Assembly: GCA_041653215.1 (NCBI GenBank)
Contig: JBAZFW010000001.1
Location: 19,202 to 83,201 of the forward strand
Length of the DNA stretch: 64,000 nucleotides
Direction: 5' to 3'
Source: Patescibacteria group bacterium
Lineage (GTDB): Bacteria; Patescibacteriota; Patescibacteriia; Patescibacteriales; GWC2-42-12
A program made the position numbers and the translations under genes. The stretch's first letter is position 1; every line of letters begins with the position of its first letter. Of the stretch, positions 59,089-60,370 are shown one piece after another. Below the pieces are notes generated by a model that saw nothing but the letters and a program-made list of their open reading frames with translations, made no database searches and was not told the origin of the DNA.

Positions 59089-60306
59089 TTATAACTCCGG
59101 CGCCATCCGCCTTAATCTTTTAATTAACGGGGGTAAAATTTTTAAAACCGCTTTTAATTCCTCTTTAGTATTATTTTTTCCAAAAGTAAATCTAATAGTA
59201 CTATGGGCTATTTCATCTTTTATACCCATAGCTAAAAGAACGGGAGAGGCCTTAAGACTAGCCGAAGCGCAGGCCGAACCGGTAGATACAGCTACACCCT
59301 CTAAATCTAGGGCGATTAAAATTGACTCTCCTTCGGCGCCGACAAAAGAAATATTAGCATGGGCTGGCGTAGCATTTTTTAAGTCAGTATTAATAATAAT
59401 TTTAGGGACTTTTCTTTTAATAAGGACAATAAATTTATCGCGTAATTTAGCAATTTTCTTATTATCTTTTACTTGATTTTTAGATACTAACTTAATCGCT
59501 TCGCCCAAACCGACTATACCAGGAACATTAAGCGTACCGCTTCTTAAATTCTTTTCATGATGGCCGCCTAACTGAACACCCTGGATCGGCGTGCCTGATT
59601 TTACATATAAAGCGCCTACGCCCTTAGGACCATAAATTTTATGCCCAGATAAAGACAATAAATCAACGTGCAAATACTTCACATCGCAATTTAAAAAATT
59701 TAAAGCCTGTACTGCATCAGTATGAAAATATATTTTATTTTTATTGCCTTGTTTTATTCTCTGCTTATTAATTTTTTCAATAACTTTTCCAATCTCTCTA
59801 ATTGGCTGGATACTACCTATCTCGCTATTAACGTACATAATCGAAACAAAAACCGTATTATCTTTTATTGCTTTTTTAAAAGTTTCTAAATTTACTATGC
59901 CATTTTTCTCGACTGGCAAATAAGTAACTTCAACGCCACGAGCTTCTAATTGATGAAAAGGTTCTAAAACGGCCGGATGTTCTATCGCCGACGTTATAAT
60001 ATGTATTTTTTTATTTTGGCTATTTTTATTTAGAATGTCAGCCACACCAAAAATAGCTAAATTATCAGCTTCAGTCGCGCCAGAAGTAAAAATTATTTCA
60101 CCAATCTGGCAATTTAAAAATTTGGCTATGTTTTCTCTGGCTTGGTTAACCGCGGCTAAAGCCTTCTGCCCGAAACTGTGGAGCGAAGATGAATTGCCAT
60201 AAATTCTACTAAAATACGGTAACATAGCCTTTAAAACCGTTTTATCTACCGGCGTAGTAGCACTATGGTCAAGATAAATTTGTTTCACCCCATTAGAAGT
60301 ACTCAT
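59089..60306 (-). CDS. iscS: cysteine desulfurase (NifS/IscS class)
   Basis: 'IYLDHSATTP', 'SGHKIYGPKG' (PLP Lys), 'SGSACAS' (active Cys). Start set to ATG 60306 (MSTSNGVKQIYLD...). Confidence 0.9.
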   Translation of the reverse strand: MSTSNGVKQIYLDHSATTPVDKTVLKAMLPYFSRIYGNSSSLHSFGQKALAAVNQARENIAKFLNCQIGEIIFTSGATEADNLAIFGVADILNKNSQNKKIHIITSAIEHPAVLEPFHQLEARGVEVTYLPVEKNGIVNLETFKKAIKDNTVFVSIMYVNSEIGSIQPIREIGKVIEKINKQRIKQGNKNKIYFHTDAVQALNFLNCDVKYLHVDLLSLSGHKIYGPKGVGALYVKSGTPIQGVQLGGHHEKNLRSGTLNVPGIVGLGEAIKLVSKNQVKDNKKIAKLRDKFIVLIKRKVPKIIINTDLKNATPAHANISFVGAEGESILIALDLEGVAVSTGSACASASLKASPVLLAMGIKDEIAHSTIRFTFGKNNTKEELKAVLKILPPLIKRLRRMAPEL

Positions 60307-60370
60307 AAAAATTGCTAAATATAACCCCACTATAAGTTCCGTTTAATTTGTAACTTCTAACGGGGTAAAT
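60286..60370 (-). promoter_or_regulatory. three-part leader module, iscS copy
   Basis: mRNA sense: ATTTACCCCGTTAGAAGTT-acaaattaaacg-GAACTTATAGTGGGGT-18 nt-ATG AGT ACTTCTAATGGGGTG. Confidence 0.55.

Follow-up and report, generated by a model that had tools for sequence, protein, structure and literature searches.

A probable mobile-element insertion in the start codon of iscS in a patescibacterial genome, related to a small GIY-YIG nuclease element

Introduction

A stretch of 64,000 nucleotides from a Patescibacteria group bacterium (assembly GCA_041653215.1, contig JBAZFW010000001.1, positions 19,202 to 83,201), hereafter the window, carries an unusual module at the 5' end of its cysteine desulfurase gene, iscS. 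The module (60286-60370, minus strand) consists of an arm A, an inner segment A' complementary to it and a second arm A'', and its arms are repeated at the heat-shock genes hrcA and grpE about 22 kb away. An earlier note on this DNA, made from the sequence alone, described the three copies as a leader module, which raises the question of whether the module belongs to the host genes as a regulatory leader or arrived from elsewhere. The window's own genome (1.03 Mb, 50 contigs, a 96% complete assembly) is referred to as G000, and the related genomes are numbered in the same way.

The comparison with related genomes indicates that the iscS module is very probably the insertion of a mobile element, and this replaces the interpretation as a leader. 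[quoted passage not shown]

Results

The module is absent from the iscS genes of related genomes

Orthologues of iscS are present in all ten genomes of the genus (69-93% identity). The earlier note had proposed an alignment of orthologous iscS 5' regions as a check, and this alignment showed a clear presence/absence polymorphism, the module being missing from 10/10 congeners. The closest relative, G007 (93% amino acid identity), aligns with G000 base for base on both sides of the insert. Its empty start reads ...TATTTTATG/AAACAA (also written ...taattaatttattttATG/AAACAAATTTAT and, longer, ...GGGCGAGTCATTTAGCTAATTAATTTATTTTATG/AAACAAATTTAT), while the filled start of G000 reads ...GGGCGAGTCATTTAGCTAATTAATTATTATTTTA(TTTACCCC...AATGGGG)TG/AAACAAATTTAT, with the inserted segment in parentheses and the left flank ttattttA. 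The alignment therefore places 82 bp inside the ancestral ATG, after its A and before its TG, with boundaries that are ambiguous by one T.

The orthologues of 18 invaded genes were sought in five congeners with a concatenated N-terminal query. For hrcA, grpE, rnhA, the nuoG-like gene, the gene of the CCA enzyme, porD, the ABC ATPase gene and the locus C16_10k, this comparison gave empty sites and placed the insertion at A^TG, while the copy at C10_26k differs in lying 8 nt upstream of the ATG. The copies at rplU, the flavodoxin and glycosyltransferase genes, C8_31k and C5_27k are common to some relatives and partly decayed in others. Moreover, the start of the CCA enzyme gene is filled in G000 (C18:17912-18011) and in G008 (L109) and empty in G007, G005, G004 and G001, which suggests recurrent, independent insertions at one site. 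The loci G007 L079 and G001 L316 are masked with N at the element sites, and their state was guessed from the flanks only. The pattern among the orthologues is one of gain and loss of mobile sequence, with no conservation of a leader. An example of an empty target sequence is TATATGAA.

Structure of the iscS copy and its relatives within the genome

On the minus strand, the module and its junction with the host gene read TATTTACCCCGTTAGAAGT-TACAAATTAAACG-GAACTTATAGTGGGGT-TATATTTAGCAATTTTT-ATG-AGT-ACTTCTAATGGGGTG-AAACAAATTTATCTTGAC (Table 1). The arms A and A'' are complementary over 14 contiguous base pairs, including one G-U (ends ACCCCGTTAGAAGT / ACTTCTAATGGGGT), and the predicted fold of the iscS module pairs A with A'' (-31.2 kcal/mol, z = -6.1). 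The reading frame is open from the ATG of the element through into iscS. The enzyme is a class-V aminotransferase of the IscS/NifS type, and its Pfam match, Aminotran_5, opens only at residue 10 (IYLD...), so that the seven residues encoded by the module (MSTSNGV) lie outside the conserved enzyme. The module extends the M-x-IYLD N-terminus, as had been suggested. The longest mechanically called open reading frame (ORF) begins at a GTG within A', at 60330; it had been explained as read-through of A', and nothing was found that supports this start.

The arms are shared with the hrcA and grpE copies as described earlier (A 18/18, A'' 15/15), with a different loop, A' and spacer, and the identity of arm A among the three copies in fact covers 19 nt (TATTTACCCCGTTAGAAGT). 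A search of the ATG-NNN-A'' pattern returned exactly these three sites, with 0.00 expected from shuffled sequences, and a search of the A arm pattern gave 5 hits against 0.09 expected from shuffles. The whole of G000 contains 19 inverted arm pairs of the ACCCCGTTAGAA type, 56-111 bp apart, and such arms at about 40 places in all. The copies are dispersed across the genome, and, as the earlier note said, the module is no local duplication.

Of the 19 pairs, 17 stand at gene 5' ends. In these start-codon copies the 3' arm is read as x-S-N-G-V in the frame of the gene, an ATG in the same frame lies between the two arms, and in all 17 no stop intervenes before the host frame. A direct reading of the sequence explains the constancy of the x-S-N-G-V frame, because the other two frames of the arm contain stops. 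The invaded genes encode RplU, GrpE, HrcA, IscS, RNase H, an ABC ATPase, a flavodoxin, a glycosyltransferase, the CCA-adding enzyme, the delta subunit of PFOR, a NuoG-like protein and several membrane proteins. They have no common function, and the statement that the module is not confined to chaperone genes holds as well. Among 40 relatives, the exact 12-mer ACCCCGTTAGAA occurs from 0 times (G001, G009) to 62 times in G010, of the same genus, and 76 times in G031, which belongs to another family of the same order.

The arms of the iscS, hrcA and grpE copies are of the AAGT type, a subfamily for which the scan found no full-length element. Relatives of this subfamily with canonical junctions are present in G010 (ATGAACCCCGTTAGAAGT...ATGCAAACTTCTAACGGGGTGAA, giving MQTSNGV).

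Solitary ACCCCGTTAAAT arms were seen at 11 places in G000 (e.g., C2:18150, C4:12514, C7:13831), and one 56-bp pair (C7:36303-36358) starts a few bases upstream of the open frame of a gene; these may represent a related subfamily. The G010 loci L341-L344 are minimal forms of 31 and 49 bp that consist of the arms with a few bases between them, and three of the four lie in frame within long ORFs.

A parent element that encodes a GIY-YIG nuclease

In G000, arms of the type amplified in this genome also flank a gene on C10 on both sides (Table 1). This only gene of the parent element (C10:33454-33744) encodes a single-domain protein of 97 residues with a Pfam match to GIY-YIG (PF01541, E = 1e-14, residues 12-81). 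Pfam found no other domains in it, NCBIfam and PADLOC gave no match, and the nearest solved relative is the UPF0213 protein 1zg2 (E = 2e-6). The same insertion stands before a membrane protein gene (the flippase site) in G007 (91% identity), G005 (80%) and G008 (73%), and a related parent copy (71%) precedes a different gene in G031. The ratio of nonsynonymous to synonymous substitution (dN/dS) among the congeneric nuclease copies is 0.17-0.31, which indicates that the protein has been kept functional.

The flippase site is empty in G004 and G001 (...CAAGCAAAGTTATG/ACC...), where G000 reads ...CAAGCAAAAACATG/AACCCCGTTA..., and this comparison puts the nuclease ATG at the position of the host start codon. 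The left arm encodes residues 2-6 of the nuclease (N-P-V-R/K-N), and the host frame can resume at an in-frame ATG whose sequence overlaps the final nuclease codons (ATGGAGAAAAAAATCAATAAAATTTCTAACGGGGTG, reading MEKKINKISNGV...). The same overlap motif forms the 3' part of many short copies (MSEKNNKISNGV and MNEKNNIISNGV in G000, MEKENKKISNGV in G031), which argues that the short copies are internal-deletion derivatives of such parents.

The G000 genome has 14 GIY-YIG minigenes, of which two on C24 (2664-2912 and 11600-11833) are flanked by TGTCATTGCGAG, a 92-copy repeat, and others by repeats of the CGAAGCAATCTC type.

The wider family and its target duplications

A pattern scan with one genome per species found the exact arms at at least 119 loci, in records labelled as many lineages of Patescibacteria and as Planctomycetota, Omnitrophota, Thermodesulfobacteriota, Nitrospirota and others. 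Some of these labels are unreliable: contigs of G005 and G007 (L126, L255, L256) are labelled 'uncultured Gammaproteobacteria' though they are congeneric with G000, and the phylum labels of such assemblies are not to be trusted at face value for the spread of the element. Records labelled as different phyla share identical arms, so that arm identity carries no information on age. At 29 loci, which include a cultured Fodinibius isolate and a complete Thermodesulfobacteriota genome, the arms lie about 290-315 bp apart, and only some of these loci have a nuclease frame that reads through the arms.

Among 83 short elements from the public genome collection, 14 are located on gene starts, 11 in frame inside genes and 58 elsewhere. 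A perfect 4-bp TNNA duplication flanks 55 of the 83, against an estimated 1% or so by chance, and we read these duplications as the signature of transposition.

The nuclease family is large: at E <= 0.001 it comprises 4,690 representative clusters. Most of the full-length copies in the scan that bear the nuclease place a separate ATG for it immediately inside the arm. The variant that captures the start, with M-N-P-V-R read through the arm, is a minority, seen in the G000 group, G031, one Parcubacteria record and 6 of the best 150 library representatives. A C-terminal ...Y-L-T-G, read through the right arm, is found in many relatives of the nuclease (P0008, P0022, P0027 and about 20 more representatives); their stop would be provided by the flanking TGA/TAA of the target duplication, so that both protein ends can be encoded by the inverted repeats.

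Location on start codons and the choice of the start

Start codons are the location of 17 of the 19 copies in G000, 14 of the 20 examined in G031 and 9 of 20 in G010. The G000 genome offers 216,260 TNNA sites, only 0.18% of which are the TG-N-A of a putative start codon, and TATG(A/G)A lies at a start only 14.5% of the time. If selection against gene disruption were the only cause, numerous copies would remain between genes, as they do in the wider sample, and we therefore infer a target preference. Whether the start-capturing nuclease lineage actively prefers the local start context is close to balanced, and we propose it tentatively. The start context in G000 is AT-rich (...AATAT-ATG-A/G-A) and lacks a Shine-Dalgarno signal, a Shine-Dalgarno-like word being found in 6.8% of the regions upstream of long ORFs and in 5.5% of random 17-mers.

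The search of the window for the CIRCE operator (TTAGCACTC-N9-GAGTGCTAA) gave a single site, at 38336-38362 upstream of hrcA, and nothing in the vicinity of iscS. A TTGACA box lies in the loop of this operator and is followed by TATAAT. In the empty hrcA alleles only 8 nt separate the TATAAT from the ATG, and the insertion adds a leader of about 64 nt; the ancestral hrcA mRNA may have been leaderless or nearly so. An account of the targeting by leaderless mRNA or an open promoter bubble was considered and rejected, as it fits hrcA but not grpE, whose start in the empty G007 allele follows the hrcA stop by 4 nt.

Two starts are possible for the invaded iscS, the ATG at 60306 and the rebuilt GTG at 60288. 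The rebuilt codon is now GTA in 10 of 18 older copies, and all copies keep the in-frame ATG. A change to GTA is synonymous only if initiation takes place upstream, which favours the ATG and, with it, a protein that would begin MSTSNGVKQIYLD...; a start at the rebuilt GTG could instead restore the native N-terminus, (M)KQIYLDHSATTPVDK.

The inner segment A'

The presence of A' was scored by at least 8 of 12 arm bases being paired when A'' was left out of the fold. In the iscS copy this gave a local A:A' hairpin of -12.8 kcal/mol with 11/12 arm bases paired, and the A:A' folds of the start-codon copies range from -7 to -21 kcal/mol with the ATG region open and an A-A' loop of about 4 to 40 nt. 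In G000, 13 of 17 start-codon copies have A' in the gene orientation and 0/17 in the reversed one, where 2.4 are expected from shuffled interiors. Likewise, A' was found in 7/14 against 0/14 start copies of the public collection and, by the same criterion, in 9/14 start copies of G031; the table for G010 gives 7/9. There is no enrichment over all 83 elements (28/83 vs. 23/83 in shuffles), and the nuclease-bearing parents are without A'.

The earlier idea of a three-part A/A'/A'' arrangement is partly retained as regards A', which is enriched in start-codon copies and in the gene orientation, while nothing identifies A' as a regulatory switch. A' probably matters for the expression of the invaded gene. 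A simple thermodynamic switch finds no support, since equilibrium folding does not favour A:A' over A:A''. It is conceivable, at slightly less than an even chance, that A' serves as a decoy and prevents arm A from blocking the new start.

The strongest competitor accepts a mobile element and assigns A' to transposition, in which it would be a guide or a subterminal hairpin, comparable to those of IS200/IS605, and would steer cleavage or integration towards start codons. It would account for the restriction of A' to start-codon copies and for the entry of the three young copies at A^TG without duplication, and it recalls the Ssn nucleases, which bind hairpins on single-stranded DNA and cut nearby (PMC11893778). 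However, parents sit in start codons without A', and the TGAA-duplicated canonical start copies show A' only partly (in the G031 and G010 proportions given above). We regard this role as unlikely, though it deserves more weight than any of the alternatives that deny mobility.

Coordinates of the features and neighbourhood of iscS

The coordinates are collected in Table 1. A scan for promoters and terminators gave no minus-strand promoter and no terminator for iscS.

Table 1. Features of the iscS copy, its sister copies in the window and the parent element of G000. Positions are those of the window unless a contig is given; slashes mark junctions.
Feature	Position	Strand	Description
Arm A	60370-60353	minus	ATTTACCCCGTTAGAAGT, 18 nt; 5' inverted end ACCCCGTTAGAAGT + 4 bases TTTA + ancestral A
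A'	60339-60324	minus	GAACTTATAGTGGGGT; inner segment, complementary to arm A
Replacement start ATG	60306-60304	minus	Borne by the element; in frame with A'' and iscS, giving MSTSNGV-KQIYLD...
Arm A''	60300-60286	minus	ACTTCTAATGGGGTG; 3' inverted end ACTTCTAATGGGG + host TG; codons T-S-N-G-V
GTG	60286..60288	minus	Last G of the element + host TG, exactly at the ancestral ATG position
Inserted segment, 82 bp	60288..60369	minus	TTTACCCCGTTAGAAGT...ACTTCTAATGGGG, between A (60370) and TG (60287-60286) of the ancestral iscS start
iscS, invaded host gene	59089..60306	minus	IscS/NifS-type cysteine desulfurase; Pfam Aminotran_5, E = 4e-78, residues 10-386
Sister copy, hrcA start codon	38229..38316	minus	Empty in G007, G005, G008, G004, G001: ...TATAATgataatatATG/GATGAAAGA
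Sister copy, grpE start codon	37453..37540	minus	Empty in G007: ...aataatattATG/ACGGAAGAA
Older, diverged copy, rplU start	13269..13373	minus	Arms ACCCCGTTAGAT; also in G007, G004; degenerate/partial in G005, G008
Parent element	G000:C10:33436-33744		Arms 305 bp apart enclose a 97-codon frame, MNPVKNLQKTLWYVYILES...LWYTGCT...

Several further features were observed around iscS. Between a NifU-like gene and iscS lies an ORF of 46 residues with 11 cysteines (MSKYKCQCGCG...CECCCC; 60441-60581, minus), which has no Pfam match and is conserved in G007 and G005. A GC-rich hairpin, GCTCGCC-N11-GGCGAGT (60396-60420, minus), separates this ORF from iscS and is also kept in G007 and G005; no terminator-like T run was detected after it. 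A gene for an L,D-transpeptidase (YkuD) with bacterial TSP3 repeats (61283-62026, minus) stands between the Rrf2 regulator and iscU, and apart from this gene the neighbourhood looks like an iron-sulphur (Fe-S) assembly operon.

Discussion

A proposed mobile lineage in start codons

The results can be brought together in the proposal that GIY-YIG mini-elements of this lineage live specifically in start codons and have neither a promoter nor a complete start codon of their own. They would integrate at A^TG(A/G)A, where the host A and the duplicated TG would form the nuclease ATG, and the host would be repaid with a replacement ATG at the 3' end of the element (or a rebuilt GTG/ATG); the short forms would have gained the decoy A', by which the new initiation site would stay open in genomes without Shine-Dalgarno sites. 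This complete scheme is appreciably less certain than the insertion itself, and we judge it not quite as probable as its being wrong in some part. As part of the insertion account, the nuclease would be expressed from the signals of the host gene, and the resident nuclease or a relative would mobilise the short copies. In the parent, ribosomes translating the nuclease frame would keep A unpaired. In a short copy without such ribosomes, A would pair with A'', which begins 4 nt past the new ATG; A' would sequester A upon transcription, and the ribosomes that load on the ATG would then cover A''. The iscS gene would survive by using either the ATG of the element, with seven extra residues (MSTSNGV), or the rebuilt GTG.

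Several observations weigh against the mobile-element account as a whole. The iscS, hrcA and grpE copies have no target duplication: all read A/TTTACCCC...GGGG/TG, with the right flanks TGAA, TGGA and TGAG, and the iscS copy is flanked by TTTA (left) and TGAA (right). Identity among the three interiors is no more than 58-69%, against 52% for shuffles, although the insertions postdate the split of G000 and G007 (synonymous divergence, dS, of about 0.13), and source copies for them were not found in the 96%-complete assembly. The statistics of A' enrichment come from related, non-independent copies, and the predicted fold at equilibrium still prefers A:A'' over A:A', so that the decoy role depends on a kinetic argument. 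It should also be said that we infer both the mobility and the nuclease activity, and that the insertion may have a secondary regulatory effect on iscS.

Two explanations of the junctions were rejected. A canonical TNNA insertion, also one with later loss of one duplicate, does not suit iscS, hrcA and grpE, since the empty sites of hrcA and grpE have no matching TTTA target. A hairpin-templated correction of the left flank from TGAA to TTCA would explain the TTCA copies, yet it fails for these three. At its start, the iscS interior resembles two copies of G010, and the hrcA interior resembles another copy of the same genome. The three window copies probably stem from distinct, older sublineages and were perhaps acquired from other cells.

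Readings without mobility

A host cis-regulatory RNA leader, i.e., a thermosensor or two-state switch in which A pairs with A' (start free) or with A'' (start occluded) and which co-regulates stress and Fe-S genes, is improbable. In its favour, the predicted structures have z values of -4.8 to -6.1 and are thus stable, omission of A'' from the fold gives the A:A' hairpin, A' is enriched in the gene orientation, two of the three window copies stand on heat-shock genes, and both arms of the copy at C2:70643-70724 carry matching changes. However, since these copies are paralogous repeats, selection at the level of DNA would account for the arms. The closest relatives have plain ATG starts without the module at iscS, hrcA and grpE (iscS 10/10, hrcA 5/5 examined), and the other 14 start-codon copies stand on unrelated housekeeping genes (rplU, RNase H, glycosyltransferase, CCA enzyme and others). 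Moreover, hrcA already has a CIRCE operator upstream and iscS has none. The search against Rfam with gathering thresholds over the whole window found only two tRNAs, and a permissive scan of 60200-60480 gave nothing even at E <= 1. The same arms flank the nuclease gene and, in other genomes, are found with target duplications both between and within genes. In place of the implied regulatory module of the host, the arms are better described as the inverted termini of a mobile family that has a parent encoding a nuclease, target duplications elsewhere and patchy copy numbers among relatives.

Two further readings have hardly any probability left. A peptide tag M-x-T/I-S-N-G-V selected at the N-terminus for sorting, stability or modification would agree with x-S-N-G-V being always in frame and with the similar short peptide given by all copies. 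Yet the frame is forced by stops in the other two arm frames, the untranslated upstream arm is equally conserved as the reverse complement of the coding arm, and the tagged proteins are cytosolic, membrane and ribosomal alike. The scenario in which TSNGV is kept only at the protein level, named earlier as one that would speak for selection on the peptide, was not seen, and the orthologues are altogether without the peptide. A set of DNA operators with A, A' and A'' as half-sites for the regulon of a transcription factor, scarcely credible either, would account for arms conserved in sequence rather than in structure, but it is contradicted by the grpE copy lying inside the operon, 12 nt past the hrcA stop codon, by presence/absence among close relatives, by the target duplications and nuclease-bearing parent, and by an A-A' loop of variable length.

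Comparison with known systems

The closest described system is Ssn, in which small single-domain GIY-YIG nucleases are flanked by amplified hairpin repeats and cut single-stranded DNA beside the repeat (Chenal et al., Nat Commun 2025, PMC11893778); its authors state that this architecture resembles an insertion sequence and name IS200/IS605 as an analogy. The mobile family described here likewise has a single-domain GIY-YIG protein of about 95 residues (here 97; the Ssn criterion is about 94), whose gene is flanked on both sides by a repeat scattered in many copies over the genome. It differs in its arms, which are ACCCCGTTAGAA rather than the CGTCATTCCCGCG... hairpins, and in its two flanks, which pair with each other, whereas each Ssn flank forms a hairpin of its own. 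Unlike in Ssn, the arms are partly coding (nuclease N-terminus M-N-P-V-R), and the short copies stand in start codons. By eye, the arms ACCCCGTTAGAA bear no likeness to the SRM/NTS consensus CGTCATTCCCGCGMAVGCGGGAATCYRG, and the G000 repeat TGTCATTGCGAG looks closer to it.

As in prokaryotic MITEs, the iscS insertion is short (82 bp, below 300), has no transposase gene, ends in terminal inverted repeats, belongs to a set of dispersed copies (19 in G000) with presence/absence polymorphism and has a longer relative that shares its ends. The target duplication typical of MITEs is missing from the iscS copy and present in the family (55/83 TNNA). Rickettsia palindromic elements (RPEs) are short, palindromic, non-autonomous repeats that persist in genes as in-frame fusions (PMC10969869). 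The start-codon family resembles them in being multi-copy and polymorphic and in its in-frame fusion with the host ORF, but RPEs insert within coding regions, whereas the G000 family sits on the start codon and supplies the initiation codon. Unlike both MITEs and RPEs, its parent enzyme is a GIY-YIG nuclease and no DDE transposase.

In Neisseria, the Correia (CREE/nemis) elements have inverted ends that, once transcribed, form long hairpins in the 5' regions of mRNAs, and these hairpins are RNase III substrates and alter expression (PMC10969869). The inverted ends in the mRNA 5' region and the predicted hairpin are a likeness to the present elements. Correia elements are about 100-200 bp long, with ends of about 26 bp and a TA duplication, and carry promoters and IHF sites; to our knowledge, they do not replace start codons.

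IS200/IS605 and REP/RAYT systems also combine a small nuclease or transposase gene with hairpin repeats, and IS200/IS605 integrates at a short target without duplication. Their enzymes have the HUH/Y1 fold in place of GIY-YIG, and the present family normally makes a 4-bp TNNA duplication. The free-standing GIY-YIG homing endonucleases of phages (Seg proteins, I-TevI) are selfish genes next to or inside essential genes that limit the harm to the host gene, and they have a separate DNA-binding domain. We know of no inverted ends or short derivatives of these enzymes, and of none that shares its start codon with a host gene. A literature search found no published account of start-codon capture or replacement by such elements.

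Significance

The insertion explains the repeat without a new regulon, and it averts the mis-annotation of a regulatory RNA and of the starts of iscS, hrcA, grpE and about 14 other genes. It would be a concrete case of small GIY-YIG nucleases and their flanking repeats acting as insertion sequences, which for Ssn has been raised only as a hypothesis. The filled and empty alleles, together with the A' hairpin, constitute a natural experiment on initiation in bacteria without Shine-Dalgarno sites, and the nuclease with its arm pair may offer a new specificity for tools acting on single-stranded DNA. Selfish DNA could persist in the essential genes of a 1-Mb genome by taking the host start codon and returning a new one. 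If true, the lineage of start-codon mini-elements would represent a previously undescribed way for selfish DNA to live inside the essential genes of streamlined bacteria.

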